DNA of 64,000 nucleotides from Nitrosomonadales bacterium. GTDB taxonomy: Bacteria; Pseudomonadota; Gammaproteobacteria; Burkholderiales; Gallionellaceae. The stretch is from positions 3,296 to 67,295 of the forward strand of contig JACRME010000015.1 in NCBI GenBank assembly GCA_016235045.1, read 5' to 3'. The notes under the pieces were generated by a model. The model did not search any database. It saw only the letters and a program-made list of their open reading frames with translations, and had not been told where the DNA came from. A program made the position numbers and the translations under genes. Each line of letters begins with the position of its first letter. The stretch's first letter is position 1. Positions 13,413 through 23,563 of this stretch are shown piece after piece.

Positions 13413-13823
13413 TCATTTTGCGTCAAAGCCGATCTCGATGCCATACGTCAGCCTGGCCAGAGTACGCGGCGCTTTCTCGCCTTCGGCGAGCTCGCAACTG
13501 ACGACAACTTTATCGTTGCTTAGCCACGCGTAGGACACAGGCGTCTTGCAGTAGCCGGCGAAGAAGACGTAGCCATCATCCGGCTGCGCAAGCGTTTTTC
13601 CGAAGGACAGGGAAAGCGTCGTTCCATAAGGTGCGTGCCCCACCCCATCCTGATTGGATCTGAACTCGTGGATTGTTTTTTTTCCATCCGGGGATGGCAG
13701 CTGCGATCCTTTCGAGTAATTCAGGTTGTCCATCACAAAGCCCAGTGCCTGCAGCAGGATAAACAGTCCAATGACGAACCAAGGCAGCCTTGATGCGATC
13801 ATGGATGGGGAAATGCGCGACAT
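13413..13823 (-). CDS. hypothetical membrane-anchored protein
   Basis: 136 aa with one N-terminal TM helix (LPWFVIGLFILLQALGFV). No family recognised. Confidence 0.5.
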   Translation of the reverse strand: MSRISPSMIASRLPWFVIGLFILLQALGFVMDNLNYSKGSQLPSPDGKKTIHEFRSNQDGVGHAPYGTTLSLSFGKTLAQPDDGYVFFAGYCKTPVSYAWLSNDKVVVSCELAEGEKAPRTLARLTYGIEIGFDAK

Positions 13824-13848
13824 GTGGTTTTGAGCCTTATAGAGGTTA

Positions 13849-13873
13849 GAAAGCCCAGCGATGCTGGGCTTTC
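13849..13873. terminator. 11-bp GC-rich hairpin downstream of the kinase-HD gene
   Basis: GAAAGCCCAGC-gat-GCTGGGCTTTC. There is no clear U-tract on either strand, so its function as a terminator is uncertain. Confidence 0.35.
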
Positions 13874-14023: not shown

Positions 14024-16366
14024 CTATTCGTCAAAATCAATTTTACCCCTGCCATCAAACATTTCTTCGGCAGACAAAATTATGCTTGGTATAAATGGCG
14101 CAGCTCTATTATGAATTTCAGGCCTAAGATAAACTCTAACTGGTGCGATATGTGCGGTAGGGAGAGTGAATATTGATTCAGCGAGATGCGAAACATCGGT
14201 AATCTGAACTTCGGTTCGTTCATCACCACGCAACACCTTAACCATTCTATTCGAGGGTTTGCCCCATGGCACATCAATTAATACGTCATTGGAAGAAACC
14301 TCAATATTTTTTTGCTGTAGTGCATTAATATATGCACCGCGTAAACGCCTAACCTGATCCCAATCAATAGGCATTGAATTACCATTCCCGTACGCAATCG
14401 ATGAGAGATTTTGCTTTACTATTCTTGAATAGATATTCTCGACTGACCGCTGCGTTGCATGTGTCGCATCAACCCAAGCATATCGCTTTATTGGAATATA
14501 TATTTCCTTGAAGTTGTAGTCCTTGTGCAAATTAACTAAACGTAGCGCATCCACACGATGTTTCTTTAATGCATCAGCCCTTGGCAGTAGAATGCGCTGC
14601 ATGGCGTCGTACTCACTGGAACAGTTCTTAAGCTGACCAACAATATTTCGCAAAATTGACAAATCACGACCAACAACAATATCTAAAAACCTGTGAAACA
14701 TAGCAAATAAGGCGCGAGTAGTTTCGTGCCAATATACTGAGGCCAGCATCTGGTCCTGGGCAAGAACCATACCCTCCACTGGTGCCACCCCATCTTCATG
14801 TATGACAAGGCGGCCAGTGGTAGGCGAACAGCGAAAGCTATTGAATATTTGCTCAACATTCAACCCATTGCCATAAGGGACGCCGCAGTGGTGAGCATCT
14901 CTGCGCAAATAGTCGATTTTGTCACAATCAATTGGCCCATCGAGAATATCTGACAAGAGTCCTGAACCGCCCTGCAAGTTTTTGTGTACTTCATCATTGC
15001 CATCTTCGCCCCAGTGATTCTCAATTGCTGACTTAAGGTCATTATCATTCTTTATTAGATGCAAAGAATGCTCAAAATGATGTATGTCAGATTTCAATTC
15101 TTTATCTTCAGGATACCTAGCCGCAACGTAGTGCTCTATGACATGCGCGAATGGATAATGCCCAACATCATGAAGAAGAGCCGCCAGTAATAGACCATCT
15201 ACATTTCGCTGATTGTGGTTTACCTTGAAGACTGGGTCGCGAATCAAGTGTTGCAGTGCTGAATATGCTGCACCATAAACGCCGATTGAATGCTCAAATC
15301 TAGTATGTGTACCACCGGGGAAAAACCACTCACAAAATGAAAGTTGTTTAATACCCCTTAGCCTTTGAAAACACTTGGTGTTAATGATATCCAGGATTGG
15401 TTCACCAACAGATATGCGCCCAGTAGCAGGCATAGGAATATATGATCTGTTACCGTCCCCCCCTAGCAATAGTCGCTCAGTTCTTGTGAGCAGCAAATTT
15501 GGGTCTATAACTTGCTCAAAGCGCTCACGAACAACACGCCAGTTATTTAGCTTTCCATAGTGCAGGTTAGCCGCAAAGTCCATGTAAGCTAACCGTTGTT
15601 CAGTATTTGCTTTACCAAAAAAAACATTTTTCATTAGGGCTAGCAGCCTGCCTAAAGCCCTAAAGTCGTTTTCTTGAAAGACCTGATTGTGTAATTGCCG
15701 ATCAACAGAATATCTGAAACCAGGTATATCAAATATATCCTTGTGACCAAGATGACCACGGTCATCTGTTGTTGGTGCCTCAGCAGACTCACGATGACCG
15801 GAACCGTAATCAATAATCATTATCCCGTCGGCGAGAATTCTGGGGCCGATTAGAATATTTTCTTCATGCAAATCGCAATGAGTTCTTCCCTCCCCATGCA
15901 AGTATTCCAATGCATCAATTAGTGATGTAACCACAAATGTTGCTTCACTTAACTCAATCATTTCCCCCGACGAACGAAATTGCGCCCAAGTTTGGCCTGG
16001 GTGAAATGTACAAACATAGTAGGGTAAGGGCGCGTTGGTATCCTCCTCATAGACTCTTGGGAGACACCTATGATTTAGTGGCTTCAATATTTCAACTTCT
16101 TTTTTGAGCGTTTCCCGAACGCGCTCACGATCACGATCAGCCACAGATTCCTTGACTGTTTTCAAGCAATATATACCTCGCTCACCACGCCAACGAATTT
16201 GAAAAGTTTGGCCAGTTTTTCCGCTAAGGTGTTCCTTATGAAAGTCATATCGAGAAAGAAGCTTCATTCCGATACTATCAATATAAGAAGGAAATGCTGC
16301 GGAGTCTGCACCTGCCAACAAGTTTCCGGTTTTACCTTGTTTTTTCATATCGACCACCAAAACCAT
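14024..16366 (-). CDS. fusion protein: N-terminal Ser/Thr-protein-kinase-like domain + SAMHD1/dGTPase-like HD phosphohydrolase domain + about 250-aa C-terminal region
   Basis: Kinase-like motifs: CLK (VAIK-type Lys), HCDLHEENILIG (catalytic loop, Asp and Asn kept), IIDYGSG (DFG-like). HD motifs: RFEHSIGV, LLHDVGHYPFAH, DCDKIDYLRRD, the spacing typical of SAMHD1-type dNTP triphosphohydrolases. Coding sequence is about 40% GC against more than 60% in the flanks. An alternative start is ATG 16348. Confidence 0.8.
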   Translation of the reverse strand: MVLVVDMKKQGKTGNLLAGADSAAFPSYIDSIGMKLLSRYDFHKEHLSGKTGQTFQIRWRGERGIYCLKTVKESVADRDRERVRETLKKEVEILKPLNHRCLPRVYEEDTNAPLPYYVCTFHPGQTWAQFRSSGEMIELSEATFVVTSLIDALEYLHGEGRTHCDLHEENILIGPRILADGIMIIDYGSGHRESAEAPTTDDRGHLGHKDIFDIPGFRYSVDRQLHNQVFQENDFRALGRLLALMKNVFFGKANTEQRLAYMDFAANLHYGKLNNWRVVRERFEQVIDPNLLLTRTERLLLGGDGNRSYIPMPATGRISVGEPILDIINTKCFQRLRGIKQLSFCEWFFPGGTHTRFEHSIGVYGAAYSALQHLIRDPVFKVNHNQRNVDGLLLAALLHDVGHYPFAHVIEHYVAARYPEDKELKSDIHHFEHSLHLIKNDNDLKSAIENHWGEDGNDEVHKNLQGGSGLLSDILDGPIDCDKIDYLRRDAHHCGVPYGNGLNVEQIFNSFRCSPTTGRLVIHEDGVAPVEGMVLAQDQMLASVYWHETTRALFAMFHRFLDIVVGRDLSILRNIVGQLKNCSSEYDAMQRILLPRADALKKHRVDALRLVNLHKDYNFKEIYIPIKRYAWVDATHATQRSVENIYSRIVKQNLSSIAYGNGNSMPIDWDQVRRLRGAYINALQQKNIEVSSNDVLIDVPWGKPSNRMVKVLRGDERTEVQITDVSHLAESIFTLPTAHIAPVRVYLRPEIHNRAAPFIPSIILSAEEMFDGRGKIDFDE

Positions 16367-16503: not shown

Positions 16504-17253
16504 TTATCTGCAATCCAATGTAGGCATTTCATCCCAAGTCTTCCCATCAAAGATTCGGCCATTGTTTCTTTTCGGTCGTTTCTTACCATCCGCACCCCAT
16601 CCGCCCCATTGCTTGAAGAAAAACGCTACACCATCTTTCTCACATTGCTCTTTTATTGTTTCCACCCACGCTGCTTTCATTGGCCTAGCCTTGGGGCCGG
16701 ATTCGCCACCTACGATCACCCAGTGTATGCCGCGCAAATCCATTACGCCAACATCATCCAGCAATGGTTCGACTGATAAGAATCGAATACCCGCATTAAT
16801 TTCCCGCAAGTCATCAATTCGCTGAAGACCATATTGTCTATTCTCCACAGATACGCCTAGCCAGACATTGTCAGGCACTAGACGCCCTCGCGTCGAAAAA
16901 TACTTGCGCATCCTTGCTGACCGTTTGGTCAATATCTGATACGTGTGTTGTGGTGTGCGTTTGATCACATCAAATACCTGATCGAGAAACTCAAAAGGTA
17001 TGTCGTTATGAAATAGATCGCTCATTGAGTTAACAAAGTACGTCGTCTTTTTACGCCGCATCAGCGGTTGCTCAAGACGCTCGGGCAGGATGCTGAGATT
17101 GAAGCCGTTCTCGTACCCCCTCGCACCCATTGCCTTAAGCCGCTTCGCCATGACCTCTGCGTAGCAATGTTTGCAGCCGGGCGATATCTTTGTGCATCCC
17201 GTTGTCGGGTTCCACGTTTGCTCTGTCCATTCTATTGTTGTTGTGCTTGTCAT
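16504..17253 (-). CDS. DUF5131 / phage Gp37-Gp68 family three-Cys-motif protein
   Basis: ORF 16504..17274 trimmed to ATG 17253 (RBS AAGGAGG 5 nt upstream). TIEWTEQTWNPTTGCTKISPGCKHCYA is the family's N-terminal signature. ...VIVGGESGP...FFFKQWGG also fits. Confidence 0.8.
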   Translation of the reverse strand: MTSTTTIEWTEQTWNPTTGCTKISPGCKHCYAEVMAKRLKAMGARGYENGFNLSILPERLEQPLMRRKKTTYFVNSMSDLFHNDIPFEFLDQVFDVIKRTPQHTYQILTKRSARMRKYFSTRGRLVPDNVWLGVSVENRQYGLQRIDDLREINAGIRFLSVEPLLDDVGVMDLRGIHWVIVGGESGPKARPMKAAWVETIKEQCEKDGVAFFFKQWGGWGADGKKRPKRNNGRIFDGKTWDEMPTLDCR

Positions 17254-17322
17254 ATGTACCTCCTTAGCTCGCAACTAATTCTAAAGCATTTCGACCTTGG
17301 TCTCTTCGCACGCAGGCATCAA

Positions 17323-18144
17323 TCAAAACAAATCACCTTGTCCCTCTGGGTTTGCGGCTGTTTTCCAGAACTTATGTGCCAATTCATGGCGTGCGGCAAG
17401 CAATAGCCAGTAAAGCGGCTGATTCTTCTCACCTGTGATGAGCCGCTGATCAATTGACGGCCATACACCAAGACTCGTTACTTTCTCACGCCAATACTCA
17501 ACCACACGCATGCGGATTTCTTGCTGTGCACCAGTCGTTGCCACGCGTGCGCGCCAACCAGGAGCAAAAGCATCAAAGGCTGAATCATCGGCGGCCAGAT
17601 TTACTGATAAATTGCGGTTCAAATCCATAGCGCTGAGGTGTATCAGTAGGTCAATTCGTTTGAGCGCGGCAAGAGTGCTGATCACTTTGAAGTCCAATGC
17701 CTCTAAGCTGTAAGGATCGACGAAAGCGAAATGAAGCGCATAACCACTGACCGCTGATACCATTTTATCGACAGCATCCGCTGCACAAGCGTGGATTGGA
17801 TGTACAGGTGCATTGAGCTTGCGTAGCCTCTCAGCACATGCATTTAGCTTTATCTCGTCGTTGTCGGAAATGTAGATATCTGTAAACGGAGCTCCGCCTT
17901 CAAGACTGGTTTTCCATGCGCCAACAACACCGCCATCAATCCACTCATTAGTACCTCTGATACGTGAACGTCCGGTTCCGCAAAATAAATCGAAATAAAC
18001 AGCGCCACCCTTTCGCTCACCGATATATTTCTTTCGCGTGCCGCGTGAGATATCTAGATATCGCTTGAGATAGGAGTGCTTCTCTTTTGCCCATGCGCCT
18101 ACTTCATCAGCAGGCAGACCATCATCGCCGTCAATTAGCGCCAC
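17323..18144 (-). CDS. tcmP: three-Cys-motif partner protein TcmP-like (methyltransferase-like fold)
   Basis: ORF 17323..18240 trimmed to GTG 18144 (RBS AGAGGAAG). DGLPADEVGAWAKEKHSYLKRYL...YFDLFCGTG... resembles the TcmP family, which is regularly encoded next to DUF5131 proteins. Confidence 0.65.
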   Translation of the reverse strand: MALIDGDDGLPADEVGAWAKEKHSYLKRYLDISRGTRKKYIGERKGGAVYFDLFCGTGRSRIRGTNEWIDGGVVGAWKTSLEGGAPFTDIYISDNDEIKLNACAERLRKLNAPVHPIHACAADAVDKMVSAVSGYALHFAFVDPYSLEALDFKVISTLAALKRIDLLIHLSAMDLNRNLSVNLAADDSAFDAFAPGWRARVATTGAQQEIRMRVVEYWREKVTSLGVWPSIDQRLITGEKNQPLYWLLLAARHELAHKFWKTAANPEGQGDLF

Positions 18145-18199
18145 AGCACTTCCTCTTAATGTGTGATATGACGAAGCGCGGGCGTACAAAGTGTGGCCA

Positions 18200-18280
18200 T
18201 ACAATCGGCCTGAGTGAAGAATGTTCGGTGAGTCTCGCAATCAAGTGCTTCCCCTTTGCTGAACAAGTGTGCCGCTGGCG
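18200..18280 (-). repeat. 81-nt conserved leader/promoter module (copy A), upstream of the tcmP-like gene
   Basis: About 87% identical to 20411-20492 and nearly identical over the central 50 nt or so (GATCAAGTGCTTCCCCTTTGCTGAACAAGTGTGCCGCTGGCGATGC). Confidence 0.75.
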
Positions 18281-18467
18281 ATGCTTCCCGTCGGTGCGGG
18301 AATCTATCCTTGCGCCAGCTCCTATCCTGGGGAGTCCGCTGTGAGCCTTGCACCGTGCGTGCGGTGCGATGTGCGTGGGGCGGAGTTGCAAGTGGGATGA
18401 ACTGTAGGGGTATGGGGCGGGTTGTGTCAATTGTACTGAGGGGGCGAAGTTGTGAAGCAGCACAGAG

Positions 18468-18537: not shown

Positions 18538-20505
18538 CTAACGGAAATTAATCGCACCGATGTCATACCCGTCGGCGCTTGGTCGCGGTGTGCGATAGAA
18601 ATCTTCAAAGACTGCGACCGGCGTGCCCGCGCCGATGGCCGGGCTGGATGCGCCGAGGCGGAAAAAGTCGGCGCTGGCCGGGTTCGCCGAAACCAGTTGC
18701 GGGTCGGCCAGCAGCGAATGGCTGTCGAGGCCCAACGCTTGCCAGCCGCTCAGATCGTACCTTGCCGTGGGCAGGCCGGAGGGGCCGACGGCGAACGGAT
18801 TTGCCTTGCTCGGTTTGTAGTAGAGGTTGTTGCTCAGGGCGATGCCGGTGGTCGCACCGAGGTTGATGAGTTCGCCCAAGCCGTTGATCCCCGGATTCTC
18901 CGACCACATCAGGTTGTTGCGCACTTCCCAGTTGCTCACCGCGGGCAGCTCGATATTCAGAAAATCGCCGTTGCCGATGTTGAGTCCGGTGGTGTTCGGC
19001 GTCATGTAGACTGAGTTGTTGAGTACATGCACGTTGCTCGCCCCGCAGGCGCCGCGGAATGCAAGGTTCATGTCGTAGATCAGGTTGTTGCGGACCATCG
19101 CGTCGTTTTCGGTCAGGTCGATGCCGGTGGAGATGTAGTCATCATTGGCGGGGTTGCCGTCGGGCTTGAGGATATTGCGTTCGATGAGCAGCATGCCGAG
19201 GTTGCGGTCGACAGCCAGCGAGAAATCGCACTCCACGTCGCTCGCGCTGGTGGCGATGCGCGAGGTGCCGGCGGTGATGATGTTGTCGGTGATGACGCCG
19301 CGCCGGGAATGCCACTTGATGCCGGTGGTCGGCGCGGCGCGGCTGGCATCGATCAGGTTGTCGGTGATGTAGACGTTGCGGCTCTCGCTCGGCCGGATAA
19401 AGCTGACCGCGATGCGCATCTGGTCGACGCTGCTGCCCATCAGCGCGCTGTCGACGCCGTCGACGTAGACGGAGAAATAGGCGTTGTTCTGCACCTGCGA
19501 GTTGTAGAGATAGCTTCTGTCGCCGCCTACTCCCCAGCCGACTTCGTTGCCGTTGTGGATCGAAAGGTTCATGCCGAGGAATTCGGTGCCGGTGCTCCCC
19601 ACGACGGTCGCGCCTTCGGTATTGGCTGGCGGCAGGTTGGTGCCGTCGAGGTCGAGGTCCATCACCCGCCAGTCCGTGCCGCTGACCAGCAGGCCTGCAC
19701 TCTGCCCCGGGTTTGCGCCCAGTTGCAGGATAGGCCGCGCGCCGGGGCCGAACGCGCCCAGCGTGTTGGGACCGCTGCCGCTCAGCGCGAGGGAGACCCC
19801 GGGCCAGGTCTCGCCGCTGCGCAGCAACAGGCGGCGATTGGCCGCAGCGTTCAGCCAGCTCAACTGTGCCGCCAGATCGGTAGAGGTAAGCGTCGCGCAG
19901 TTCGCCGGTGCATCGGTGAAGTCGCCCGTGCGCGAAACGCAGCGGGTTGCGTTCCCGGCGTAAACGGCTGCCGGATCGCTCACGGTGATGCTGACCGTAC
20001 CCACCGGACCAAGCCGCCCGGCACGATCCCGCACGCTGACGCTGACAACGTAAGTGCCGGGGGTTTCAAAAACATGCGCCGCCAGAAATCCGGTCGCCCG
20101 GTTGCGGCTCTTGCCGGTGGTCTGCCACACGCCGGCGCTGGCATCGTCGAAGTCCCAACTGAAATTCGCCGAGAGAAAGTCGTCACCGGTTAGCCCCGTA
20201 GTAGCGCTGGCATCAAAGAAGACTGCGAGCGGCGCAACGCCCGCCGTGCGACTCGGCGTTAGCGTAACCAGGATGTCGGTCAAAACGGGGGTAGATGGGG
20301 ATGGAGCCGACGAGCCCCCGCAAGCCGTCAGGCCCAGGCAGACCAGCAGGAGGAAGATCAGACCACGCCGGGGGTGGAAAATGGCGATAGGGACAGACCG
20401 TTTACTTGGGCTGAATATTGAATATTTGGTGAGACTTGCGATCAAGTGCTTCCCCTTTGCTGAACAAAGTGTGCCGCTGGCGATGCATCCCGACTGATGG
20501 AACAA
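18538..20505 (-). CDS. secreted lipoprotein with PKD domain and right-handed parallel beta-helix region
   Basis: Lipobox LLLVCLGLTAC. PKD-like segment (APLAVFFDAS...FSWDFDD...HVFETPGTYVVSVSVRD). Repeated NN-I/L beta-helix turns (ITDNLI, VRNNLIY, VLNNSVY, VRNNLMW). The start is uncertain: the ORF's first 50 codons or so read through the conserved leader repeat, and no ATG, GTG or TTG lies just before the signal peptide. Confidence 0.7.
   Translation of the reverse strand: MFHQSGCIASGTLCSAKGKHLIASLTKYSIFSPSKRSVPIAIFHPRRGLIFLLLVCLGLTACGGSSAPSPSTPVLTDILVTLTPSRTAGVAPLAVFFDASATTGLTGDDFLSANFSWDFDDASAGVWQTTGKSRNRATGFLAAHVFETPGTYVVSVSVRDRAGRLGPVGTVSITVSDPAAVYAGNATRCVSRTGDFTDAPANCATLTSTDLAAQLSWLNAAANRRLLLRSGETWPGVSLALSGSGPNTLGAFGPGARPILQLGANPGQSAGLLVSGTDWRVMDLDLDGTNLPPANTEGATVVGSTGTEFLGMNLSIHNGNEVGWGVGGDRSYLYNSQVQNNAYFSVYVDGVDSALMGSSVDQMRIAVSFIRPSESRNVYITDNLIDASRAAPTTGIKWHSRRGVITDNIITAGTSRIATSASDVECDFSLAVDRNLGMLLIERNILKPDGNPANDDYISTGIDLTENDAMVRNNLIYDMNLAFRGACGASNVHVLNNSVYMTPNTTGLNIGNGDFLNIELPAVSNWEVRNNLMWSENPGINGLGELINLGATTGIALSNNLYYKPSKANPFAVGPSGLPTARYDLSGWQALGLDSHSLLADPQLVSANPASADFFRLGASSPAIGAGTPVAVFEDFYRTPRPSADGYDIGAINFR
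20411..20492 (-). repeat. 81-nt conserved leader/promoter module (copy B), upstream of the PKD/beta-helix gene
   Basis: See 18200-18280. It is immediately followed (20496-20520) by a 25-nt fragment of the 60-nt nested element. Confidence 0.75.
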
Positions 20506-20675: not shown

Positions 20676-21347
20676 CTAGACTGTAAGTGCTGTACATAAG
20701 CGCTCGACCTGACGATTGAATGCAGATTCCTCGTTGTGTCCTCTAAAGTCAGCCGCCACACGTGACTGCAACTGTCGCGCAAGATCTTTCCGTTCTGGCT
20801 CCCAACGGGACAAGACGAAATCATCTAACAGAACTGGAATCAAGAGTTCTGTACCTCCTTCGCGTGCCTCACGCGTAAGGGTTTGCTCGAGTTCATTCAG
20901 CCAACCTGGACGAGTAACTGCAGCCTCCGAGCAAATGGAGACTACGACGTCGTATTCATAAACAGCATCTGCCATCGTTCGATGTAGGCGCCGACCTGGA
21001 ATTGAGGACTCTGGGAAGTAATAGGTATGAACGCCTTTGCTCAGAAGCGCCTCATAGAGTTTTCGCGCAAAAACTTCATCTGGCCCGCCGTAGCTTATGA
21101 ACGCCGTCTTGAACTTTGCCGGCTTAACAACCGGATTTGCGGCTCTGTCTAGTCTTCCGACTGTCTGTGCGGATAGATCGCCCGAGCGTGCAATTTCAGC
21201 TATTGACGGACCATTCGGTAAGTTTCGCAGTGCAAGCATTTGCTGCACGAATTGCGACGTCTCTGGCGCGAGACCGAGGTCATCCAGGAACGGCTTAAGC
21301 CGTTCATAGTTCTCGGGCGTGAGTTTTACGGCGGCGGCTACGAACAT
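20676..21347 (-). CDS. TIR-domain protein with about 75-aa N-terminal helical domain
   Basis: KTAFISYGGPDEVFARKLYEALLSKGVHTYYF (TIR box 1-like) and RPGWLNELEQTL (the W-x-x-E-L motif carrying the NADase Glu in catalytic TIRs). It has its own RBS (AAGGGGAA) and lower GC than draT. Confidence 0.75.
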   Translation of the reverse strand: MFVAAAVKLTPENYERLKPFLDDLGLAPETSQFVQQMLALRNLPNGPSIAEIARSGDLSAQTVGRLDRAANPVVKPAKFKTAFISYGGPDEVFARKLYEALLSKGVHTYYFPESSIPGRRLHRTMADAVYEYDVVVSICSEAAVTRPGWLNELEQTLTREAREGGTELLIPVLLDDFVLSRWEPERKDLARQLQSRVAADFRGHNEESAFNRQVERLCTALTV

Positions 21348-21500: not shown

Positions 21501-22574
21501 TCAATACGCCGCGATACTCACCTCATACAACCCGCCAATCACAGTGTACTCGTCCTCCCCCTGCAACATCCCCGGCAGCAATCTCGTGTAGCAGAACACT
21601 TTGGCCAGCGGCACTTGCGCGGTGAGCAGGTAGTCGCCGAACTCGTCGGCGCGTTCGCGGTTGGCGGTGAAGGAGCTCAGGCTGTTGAAGAGGACGACGC
21701 GGTGTTTGTTGTCCAGGAGGGCGAGTGTTTCGTGATCGTCAACGCGGTTAACGCCGCGGTAGAGGGTGAGGTGGGTTTCGCCGGGATACAGTCTGGCGAG
21801 TTCGTACTGGCAAAAGGTGTAGAGCAGGTCGAACTGCGATTCCAGCGCGTTGGTTCCGTATAGCGCGGTGGCGCGCATCTCCAGGTAGTGGCGGTAGGCT
21901 TCGCCCGACAAGTTGCGTATCTGCCCGCCGTGATGTCTTGGCAACAAGCCGAAGCGCGATTCCACCCAGCCTTTCAATGCCGCGCCTTCGCGGCCGTCTG
22001 CATCGAAACTCCAGCCGCGCACCATGCGCAGATAGTCGGCTTTCTGCCGCTTGTGTGTCGCTTGTGCGGTGTAGCCCGCCTGTTCCGGTTCGTCCAGATA
22101 GAACGAGGCGTTCATGTGCATGGTGAAGGCGTCGGCGCGTTCCTTTGGACTGTCGATGCGATCCAGCAGTTGGAACAGGCCGCGATGAAACTGGGCCACG
22201 CCGTCGAGTTCAAGGGCGACGGGCGAACGCTGGAAGGTGAGTCCGCCGAGGATGTCGGCGGGGAGGTTGCAGCGGTTGATCGGTAGCCGCGCGCTGCGTG
22301 GCAGAACGATGGACTTGCTTTCAGATAATCCATTAGCTGCAACAACATGCCCTCCCCCTTGCAGGGGGAGGGGTAGGGTGGGGGTAGAGTCGATGGGCTC
22401 CAGCGCTTCTACCCCCATCCTGGCCTTCCCCCTGCAAGGGGGAAGGGACTGGTGCTGCCCTGGTGAACTATCCGGGGTGACTTCGGGGGTTGTAGGCACT
22501 GCTACAAAGGCATCGGCTTTGTTGTGTTCCACATCCGCCATTGCTTGTGGGGTTGTTTTATTTTTCTTATGCAT
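21501..22574 (-). CDS. draT: NAD(+)-dinitrogen-reductase ADP-D-ribosyltransferase DraT (with atypical about 85-aa N-terminal extension)
   Basis: From INRCNLPADILGGLTFQRSPVALELDGV... through ADYLRMVRGWSFDADGREGAALKGWVESRFGL...LTLYRGVN...FNSLSSFTANRERADEFG...GEDEYTVIGGLYEV it is collinear with Rhodospirillum/Azospirillum DraT. It is divergent from nifH. The start is uncertain (see findings). Confidence 0.85.
   Translation of the reverse strand: MHKKNKTTPQAMADVEHNKADAFVAVPTTPEVTPDSSPGQHQSLPPCRGKARMGVEALEPIDSTPTLPLPLQGGGHVVAANGLSESKSIVLPRSARLPINRCNLPADILGGLTFQRSPVALELDGVAQFHRGLFQLLDRIDSPKERADAFTMHMNASFYLDEPEQAGYTAQATHKRQKADYLRMVRGWSFDADGREGAALKGWVESRFGLLPRHHGGQIRNLSGEAYRHYLEMRATALYGTNALESQFDLLYTFCQYELARLYPGETHLTLYRGVNRVDDHETLALLDNKHRVVLFNSLSSFTANRERADEFGDYLLTAQVPLAKVFCYTRLLPGMLQGEDEYTVIGGLYEVSIAAY
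22350..22447. repeat. REP-B doublet, uninterrupted (empty-site reference for the 60-nt nested element)
   Basis: CCTCCCCCTTGCAGGGGGAGGGGTAGGGTGGGGGTAGAG...TCTACCCCCATCCTGGCCTTCCCCCTGCAAGGGGGAAGG. It lies in frame inside the long draT ORF. Confidence 0.8.
22491..22506 (+). promoter_or_regulatory. NifA UAS for nifH
   Basis: TGTAGGCACTGCTACA is an exact TGT-N10-ACA, about 100 nt upstream of the nifH -24 element. Confidence 0.7.
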
Positions 22575-22603
22575 TTCAGGCGGTTGGGTGTTTGTTGGGC
22601 GGG

Positions 22604-22619
22604 TGGCACGGAGCTTGCG
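22604..22619 (+). promoter_or_regulatory. sigma-54 promoter of nifHDK
   Basis: TGGCACGGAGCTTGCG (TGGCAC-N5-TTGC), 66 nt upstream of the nifH ATG. Confidence 0.85.
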
Positions 22620-22666
22620 ATGTACTGGGTGCGAGCGACAGTTTTCAATCGCACATTAAATTCTGA

Positions 22667-23563
<897 letters not shown>

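Follow-up and report, generated by a model that had tools for sequence, protein, structure and literature searches.

SAMHD1 is an antiviral enzyme which depletes deoxynucleoside triphosphates (dNTPs), and a Ser/Thr kinase (CDK, acting at T592) modulates how active it is. Its core fold is shared with EF1143 of Enterococcus faecalis and with proteins of Aquifex (2hek) and Bacteroides (2q14). The gene described here encodes a 780-residue protein in which such a core is preceded by a eukaryotic-type Ser/Thr kinase domain. It lies in a stretch of 64,000 nucleotides (the window) from a Nitrosomonadales bacterium (contig JACRME010000015.1 of assembly GCA_016235045.1, positions 3,296 to 67,295). The whole core fold, including the C-terminal lobe (C-lobe), is common to the fusion protein and these enzymes (Foldseek TMt 0.65-0.79). 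The metal-binding, catalytic and deoxyribose-selecting residues are identical to those of SAMHD1, and the Q-R-L-R helix of the allosteric site is conserved. The fusion protein differs from SAMHD1 in carrying a kinase at its N-terminus, where SAMHD1 has a SAM domain, and in the substitutions R366 to Gln, H370 to Leu and D137 to Asn within its clade. One article (PMC8426622) describes SAMHD1 as regulated by phosphorylation. By analogy, the fusion may carry within one chain the relationship that CDK and SAMHD1 have as separate proteins.

The anti-phage dGTPases of the Dgt type (Tal et al.) presumably share the same logic, depletion of dNTPs on infection, and belong to a different HD branch. An earlier note on this DNA, made from the sequence alone, had named such enzymes as the precedent. 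That comparison survives in part. The Dgt-type family models (PADLOC dGTPase and NCBIfam NF041026/NF003701), tested at their own thresholds, failed to recognize the protein (PADLOC dGTPase, a partial match with E = 1.8e-4 and 19 bits; NF041026, 11.3 bits where 400 are required; TIGR01353, 23.9 where 152 are required). The established enzymes are thus of another branch, while the assignment to a dNTPase family stands, in the SAMHD1/EF1143 branch. Tal et al. also reported an anti-phage dCTP deaminase in which an N-terminal kinase-like domain is essential. CloA of the Clover system (CloA/CloB) has been described as a regulated dNTPase that needs tight regulation; there the regulation comes from a partner nucleotidyltransferase, whereas here it would come in cis from a protein-kinase fold. 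A 2026 paper on the octameric (Vdg) dGTPase includes a survey of fusions, which gives SAM, NLR, TIR, CARD, death and SIR2 partners and no kinase.

Hanks-type kinase cores are present in the defence proteins Stk2, PD-T4-6, MAD6 of the MADS system and CARF-STK-AAA. The catalytic loop of these kinases reads HRDxKxxN, whereas that of the fusion reads HCDLHxxN. The C-terminal partner also differs, being a dNTPase here and a sensor or other domain in those kinases. The best kinase matches in PADLOC were the PD-T4-6 models (E = 1.6e-17) and mad6; both are confined to the kinase core (about 165 residues), the best PD-T4-6 match extending over profile positions 18-183 of 427. The order of a kinase or pseudokinase followed by a hydrolase is that of IRE1 and RNase L, which serve as the template for the proposal made below. 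In these proteins the effector is activated by nucleotide binding to the kinase domain, by dimerisation or by trans-autophosphorylation. Their effector is an unrelated KEN RNase and not an HD enzyme, and homology is limited to the kinase fold. The literature searched yielded no account of a kinase fused to a dNTPase. The nearest precedent is the dCTP deaminase, the 'kinase' of which we take to be a P-loop nucleotide kinase and not a eukaryotic protein kinase (ePK).

The gene is an open reading frame (ORF) extending from ATG to stop codon on the minus strand (Table 1), exactly where the earlier note had placed it with the strand unstated. All of the motifs quoted in that note were located at the residues given (YCLKTV, HCDLHEENIL, IIDYGSG, RFEHSIGV, LLHDVGHYPFAH and DCDKIDYLRRD). 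The encoded protein is identical to NCBI MBI5890886.1, an 'HD domain-containing protein' from a Nitrosomonadales metagenome-assembled genome (MAG). The NCBI version starts at Met7, and this is the probable true start (ATG at 16346-16348, leaving 774 residues); a GGTGG sequence is present upstream of it. Members of the fusion family carry generic names in public annotation, such as 'HD domain-containing protein', 'protein kinase' or 'putative dNTP triphosphohydrolase'.

By predicted fold and catalytic residues, residues 301-780 form a complete SAMHD1/EF1143-type dNTP triphosphohydrolase core (HD plus HD_assoc_2, COG1078), for which dNTPs are the inferred substrate. Pfam returned HD at residues 356-452 (E = 7e-7) and HD_assoc_2 at residues 517-564 (E = 3e-7). 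A profile of the family matched 2hek (1e-57), EF1143 (4e-51) and SAMHD1 (about 1e-38) among structures of the PDB. In Foldseek comparisons with the PDB, residues of about 300-780 were aligned to SAMHD1 cores over about 500 columns (TMt 0.65-0.72, E about 1e-15), and a TMt of 0.79 was reached with Aquifex 2hek. The earlier note had regarded the C-terminal 250 or so residues as lacking a recognisable motif. They are not an extra domain, because Foldseek and the profiles align them to the SAMHD1 core as its C-lobe, in which D698, G702 and K703 are invariant and H727 is conserved at 96%. The grouping was also checked against signalling HD families. All significant matches were of the SAMHD1 type; there was no match to HD-GYP or RelA/SpoT, and HDOD appeared only below threshold (E = 0.13).

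The core elements can be followed along the chain. They comprise FQRLR (residues 333-337, the helix of the allosteric site), RFEHSIGV (356-363, with H359), H399-D400 and H403 within the segment at 397-408, H408-x-x-E411, H430, D480-x-D482-K483-x-D485-Y486-x-x-R489-D490 (480-490) and Q537 followed by Y545-W546. Conservation was assessed in homolog alignments of 82 and 69 sequences, with identities of 21-77%, and SAMHD1 equivalents were mapped via alignments of hidden Markov models. The full metal quartet, correctly called SAMHD1-type in the earlier note, is H359, H399, D400 and D482 (SAMHD1 H167, H206, D207 and D311), and it is invariant in 69/69 homologs. The catalytic and phosphate-binding residues H403, H408, E411, H430, R356 and K483 (SAMHD1 H210, H215, the Glu of the HE dyad, H233, R164 and K312) are invariant in the clade of the query and present in at least 12 of 14 members of a distant clade. 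The deoxyribose-selecting residues Q341, L342, Y486, D490 and Y545 (SAMHD1 Q149, L150, Y315, D319 and Y374) are invariant in both clades, Y545 being the counterpart of the deoxyribose gate Y374. In allosteric site 1, Q334 and R337 (SAMHD1 Q142 and R145) are conserved.

The N-terminal residues 25-300 adopt, in the model, the bilobal fold of a eukaryotic-type Ser/Thr kinase. Pfam Pkinase was matched at residues 48-197 (E = 5e-16; 59 bits, with the cutoff at 31.7), and the family profile matched the kinases DAPK3, CDPK1 and PknB in the PDB (about 1e-28). The isolated domain was modelled by AlphaFold2 (AF2) with a predicted local distance difference test score (pLDDT) of 87, and its best Foldseek matches, to Aurora A and DAPK1, took in both lobes and about 270 columns (E about 1e-12). 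The region called a kinase in the earlier note is therefore a genuine ePK fold and not some other fold. A pseudokinase, which that note had left as an alternative, is unlikely, because K69, E90, D165, N170 and D186 are either invariant or at least 90% conserved among the 69-82 aligned homologs, and D234 of the αF helix is likewise invariant or almost so.

Two canonical features are nevertheless altered in the query, the catalytic-loop Lys and the full GxGxxG loop. The Lys is replaced by His (H167), as had been noticed before, and this holds for 56/56 members of the clade of the query. The glycine-rich loop, which had been reported as not obvious, does exist: the family consensus is G-x-G-K-T-G, and the query reads L-S-G-K-T-G, so that the first Gly alone is lost. 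The activation segment holds T200-x-x-R-G204, invariant within the clade of the query, and T200 is a candidate phospho-acceptor. A set of clade-specific invariant His and Cys residues (C67, C164, H167, H191 and H122; window 15791-16171, minus strand) lines the kinase active site. These residues may bind a metal or respond to the redox state.

The fusion family is rare but conserved, with about 95 near-full-length members distributed sporadically across distant phyla. The clade of the query is monophyletic in a crude neighbour-joining tree and has fixed several derived states: HCDLHxxN (56/56), D[FY]GSGHR and R366 to Gln, as well as D137 to Asn and H370 to Leu. A distant clade is 21-24% identical to the query and has the same architecture of about 770 residues. 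It includes MAG proteins of Lokiarchaeota/Promethearchaeota (Asgard archaea), such as TFF94819.1. The distant clade keeps the textbook motifs, namely GxGxxG, H-K/R-D-I-K-P-E-N (HKDIKPEN), DFG, the catalytic-loop Lys (13/13) and the equivalents of SAMHD1 D137 and R366.

The kinase domain alone was searched exhaustively with HMMER against 1.84 billion representatives. This search returned 35 clusters at E <= 1e-30, all of fusion length (737-824 residues) or fragments, and beyond these the scores fall to generic kinases (about 1e-18, 24-30% identity). Because of this composition and the sharp drop that follows it, the kinase subtype is, as judged from these searches, exclusive to the fusion. Its use as a modular sensor with other effectors was considered and rejected, as none was found in the kinase-domain searches. 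For pairs of homologs, identity in the kinase half closely tracks identity in the HD half (r = 0.79 for the near clade, 0.97 for the far clade and 0.93 for both together), and the mean is 42% in either half. By this measure the halves have diverged together, as a single unit and under comparable constraint. The AF2 model of the whole protein, built with 69 homologs, has a mean pLDDT of 93 and a predicted template modelling score (pTM) of 0.89, which implies a fixed arrangement of kinase and HD domain. At one locus (L092:8001-10329) a 205-residue kinase fragment and a 526-residue HD protein are separated by a gap of 130 nt; this was rejected as a genuine two-gene version and is probably a disrupted copy of the fusion. 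Kinase-only and HD-only fragments also share contigs elsewhere (P0122/P0090).

The surroundings of the fusion were surveyed at 19 distinct loci, collected from exact-protein look-ups and a kinase-pattern scan of metagenomes. No neighbour gene is conserved across them, and just two small pairs of loci share a neighbour. A conserved partner gene was therefore rejected, and the fusion is read as a stand-alone single-gene module. In 12 of 13 other loci its GC content lies below that of the flanks, by up to 23 points. Several of the neighbourhoods hold defence or mobility genes. In L001 they are RelE/HTH and transposases, and in L003 an integrase with Prim-Pol and a pAgo-like ORF (16967-18244) related to the pAgo of L124. 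The latter locus carries a complete short-pAgo system, with a TIR-APAZ-like gene (E = 3e-132) and short pAgo (E = 2e-196), at L124:5219-8154, 375 bp downstream of the fusion homolog. Pycsar-type TIR, DUF4062 and WD40 genes neighbour the fusion in L005, a GajB-like helicase in L127, Fic/SoFic in L130, and Fic/SoFic, CARF-STK-AAA and methyltransferases in L090. Judged by its composition and these low-GC, defence-rich or mobile contexts, the gene is horizontally acquired or mobile.

Directly downstream of the fusion, 2 of the 19 loci encode homologous proteins of about 220-235 residues without a family match (L090:10150-10854 and L130:2939-3601), and a gene of similar size without assignment occupies the same position at L001:10548-11255. 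This protein may be an occasional accessory gene. Among viral contigs no relative of the fusion was found, just HD-only SAMHD1-like genes, and a phage-borne origin is thus unsupported. Several of these stand-alone genes, 24-33% identical to the HD core of the query, are on giant-virus GVMAG contigs (IMG/VR: L100, L104-L106, L109, L112 and L121).

The reading favoured here is that the fusion is a self-contained, horizontally mobile, single-protein module against phages or other mobile elements, in which a kinase controls a SAMHD1-type effector (probability roughly 0.5). The confidence differs between its parts. The architecture and the intactness of the active sites are close to certain, and an immune or accessory role is probable. 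Control of the HD domain by the kinase in cis stands at about even odds, and the specific mechanism of phosphorylation-gated oligomerisation is tentative, falling short of even odds. We infer dNTPs as the substrate, a role in defence, and both the way in which the kinase exerts control and its direction. Phosphorylation-gated dNTP depletion was also the suggestion of the earlier note. The functional coupling on which it depends is now better founded, because this kinase subtype was met in the fusion alone, the halves co-diverge and the contexts are rich in defence genes.

Enzymes of the SAMHD1 family become active on oligomerising, and the switch of Hanks kinases is dimerisation with trans-autophosphorylation; for this reason, kinase-governed assembly of the active dNTPase is proposed. 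The effector would be the C-terminal 480 residues, which when active would degrade dNTPs and starve the replication of invading DNA. The regulator would be the N-terminal 300 residues, a dedicated kinase, catalytically competent by its conserved residues, that has presumably co-evolved with the effector and would control it. Nucleotide binding, dimerisation or trans-autophosphorylation of the kinase (with T200 as the candidate site), and/or phosphorylation of the HD moiety, would determine the assembly of the dNTPase into its active oligomer. Infection would tip this switch, and the resulting depletion of dNTPs would halt phage DNA synthesis.

A number of observations weigh against this proposal. 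The residue aligned with the γ-phosphate-binding Arg R366 of SAMHD1 is Q537, a Gln in 55/55 near-clade sequences (alignment A1), while it is Arg in 11/14 members of the distant clade and in 2hek, EF1143 and 2q14. It has been reported that R366 binds the γ-phosphate of the substrate, and that R366C/H mutants of SAMHD1 lose dNTPase activity and keep other functions (PMC8497992). Also within the near clade, H370 is Leu in 54/55 members, and D137, the guanine-specifying allosteric residue, is Asn in 51/55 and Asp in the distant clade. Because of these three changes, the substrate, basal activity or activation in the clade of the query may differ from those of SAMHD1. The His of the catalytic loop is also seen in APH-type kinases, which act on small molecules, and the substrate of the kinase may be other than a protein. 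A separate sensor domain is not evident in the fusion, and PADLOC 2.0 and NCBIfam hold no model for the family. The evidence from defence contexts is qualitative, and the neighbours in L087, L089 and L092 are largely housekeeping genes.

The kinase region matches the PADLOC models of PD-T4-6 and MAD6 (E = 1e-17 to 1e-13), and the fusion might accordingly house two effectors, with the kinase, in the manner of Stk2 and PD-T4-6, independently phosphorylating proteins of the host or the phage, and the SAMHD1-like domain sensing nucleotide pools and responding to them via its own allosteric sites. The invariance of Q334 and R337 is in keeping with such sites, and CloA shows that nucleotide levels alone can trigger dNTPases. 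This arrangement is nonetheless rather unlikely, as the kinase subtype, fragments apart, never occurs alone or with other partners, and both the tight co-divergence of the halves and the packed two-domain model favour intramolecular coupling.

The kinase may alternatively be a scaffold, a dimerisation switch that binds ATP or dNTPs in the manner of IRE1 or the RNase L pseudokinase and for which phosphotransfer is dispensable. The invariance of D165, N170 and D186 across divergent homologs argues against this, since a pure binding module would not require them, and the idea is unlikely. It draws on the kinase-then-hydrolase layout shared with IRE1 and RNase L, on the derived active-site residues (HCDLH and GSGHR) and weakened Gly loop of the clade, and on the activation of SAMHD1-type enzymes by oligomerisation.

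Of the same low order is the possibility that the HD domain of the clade has a modified nucleotide or a signalling nucleotide as its substrate, or mainly binds nucleic acid. The missing γ-phosphate Arg, the accompanying changes at H370 and D137, and the functions other than dNTPase activity that are kept by the R366C/H mutants of SAMHD1 would all fit it. Yet invariance extends to every metal ligand, to the His/Glu set of the catalytic site and to the residues which select the 2'-deoxy sugar (L150, Y374, Y315, D319 and Q149), and R366 is kept in the distant clade. In addition, R744, H727 and H558 are invariant residues specific to the clade, which might compensate for the absent Arg.

A housekeeping role, as a kinase-controlled regulator of the dNTP pool or the cell cycle instead of an immune gene, is improbable. 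Stand-alone dNTPases can have such roles, as is reportedly the case for Dgt of Caulobacter (PMC12186491), and metabolic genes are neighbours in L087, L089 and L092. Against this stand the sporadic distribution, the great rarity of the family, the strongly atypical GC content in the window as in the 12 of 13 other loci, and the frequency of integrase, transposase, toxin-antitoxin and defence neighbours.

Within the window the fusion gene is part of a low-GC island, which also holds two genes upstream of it encoding TcmP and DUF5131 (Table 1). This pair matches the PADLOC candidate systems PDC-M41 (A/B) and PDC-M30 (PDC-M30B), and next to nothing was found on it in the literature, where DUF5131 appears in a single paper. 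That the kinase-HD protein makes up an operon-encoded three-gene system with TcmP and DUF5131, as their shared strand, gaps of 48 and 137 nt, common island and the match of the pair to candidate systems could suggest, is very improbable given that none of the 18 other fusion loci has a TcmP or DUF5131 homolog (all-against-all BLASTP), that the GC content at third codon positions (GC3) differs and that a hairpin lies within the 137-nt gap. The pair is probably a separate candidate defence module and not a partner of the fusion, and the island is most simply read as two modules side by side.

Table 1. Features of the fusion gene and of the low-GC island in the window
Feature	Position	Strand	Basis or remark
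Low-GC island	~13.8-18.3 kb		GC/GC3 by gene: fusion 43%/0.375; TcmP and DUF5131 48-49%/0.44-0.51; host genes ~61%/~0.78
Whole kinase/SAMHD1-like fusion ORF	14024..16366	-	780 aa; GC 43.0%, GC3 37.5% vs ~61% and ~78% in host genes
Hanks-type (ePK) Ser/Thr kinase domain, residues 25-300	15467..16294	-	Pfam, profile vs PDB, AF2 and Foldseek
Glycine-rich loop remnant LSGKTGQTF, residues 47-55	16202..16228	-	Family consensus GxGKTG
β3 motif YCLKTV, residues 66-71, ATP-anchoring Lys K69	16154..16171	-	Homolog conservation
αC Glu E90	16085-16108	-	Homolog conservation
Catalytic loop HCDLHEENIL, residues 163-172 (D165, H167, N170)	15851..15880	-	Homolog conservation
Mg-binding loop IIDYGSGHR (D186; IIDYGSG = 184-190) and activation segment with T200-x-x-R-G204	15740..15817	-	
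SAMHD1/EF1143-type HD catalytic core, residues 301-570	14657..15466	-	Pfam, profiles, residue mapping
Helix QDQMLASVYWHETTR, residues 537-551 (Q537, Y545)	14714..14758	-	Alignment to SAMHD1
C-terminal lobe of SAMHD1 fold, residues 571-780	14027..14656	-	Foldseek; conserved D698, G702, K703, H727, R744
Terminator-like hairpin AGCCCAGC-ATC-GCTGGGCT, then TTTCT	13848..13870	-	~155 nt past fusion stop codon; read directly from sequence
DUF5131/phage Gp37-Gp68 (radical-SAM-like)	16504-17274	-	PF07505, E = 1e-110; phrog_2045; upstream, low-GC island
TcmP (three-Cys-motif partner)	17323-18240	-	TIGR04474, E = 3.6e-49; upstream, low-GC island

The terminator-like hairpin beyond the fusion gene was not returned by the consensus scan, and the promoter scan gave no signal exceeding the shuffled expectation. 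The left edge of the island is occupied by a 136-residue ORF with an N-terminal hydrophobic segment (13413-13823, minus strand; intermediate GC content of 54.5%), for which Pfam, NCBIfam, PADLOC and PHROGs gave no family match. No flanking direct repeats of the island were found, and the window contains no tRNA that could mark an integration site. A megablast search of the 10-20 kb region against E. coli genomes returned no match.

A direct repeat of about 86 nt (18207-18290 and 20408-20492, plus strand, 83-96% identical) brackets a gene for a PKD-domain protein (18538-20505). One copy is exactly at the right edge of the island, there is no further copy in the window, and the repeat may be a duplicated 5' region or a recombination scar. 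Between the PKD-domain protein and draT is a gene of atypical composition (20676-21347, minus strand, GC3 0.49), which may be another small defence gene. Its 223-residue product has TIR_2 (E = 2e-17) as the C-terminal domain, and the 80 residues at the N-terminus are without assignment. The divergent genes draT (DRAT, E = 4e-103, with an N-terminal extension of about 100 residues) and nifH (E = 1.6e-141) follow at 21501-23563. This gene content marks the host as a diazotroph that controls its nitrogenase by ADP-ribosylation.

The observations on the two halves can be joined in a speculative and unlikely form, in which an ePK would switch a SAMHD1-type dNTPase in cis, through trans-autophosphorylation or nucleotide-driven dimerisation. 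The pocket without its γ-phosphate Arg would be inert until a kinase-dependent rearrangement supplied a substitute, and the Asgard versions would make this an ancient immune principle and not a metazoan add-on.

Depletion of dNTPs is an antiviral strategy common to humans, in the form of SAMHD1, and bacteria, and the key question is how it is kept off and then triggered by infection. With regulator and effector in one 780-residue polypeptide, the coupling of a kinase to its effector is open to dissection by point mutants. The fusion would add a single-gene entry to the catalogues of defence systems, and a kinase to the immune partners of SAMHD1-type domains. Because the clade with canonical motifs includes Asgard archaea, the family also bears on the deep roots of SAMHD1 phosphoregulation.

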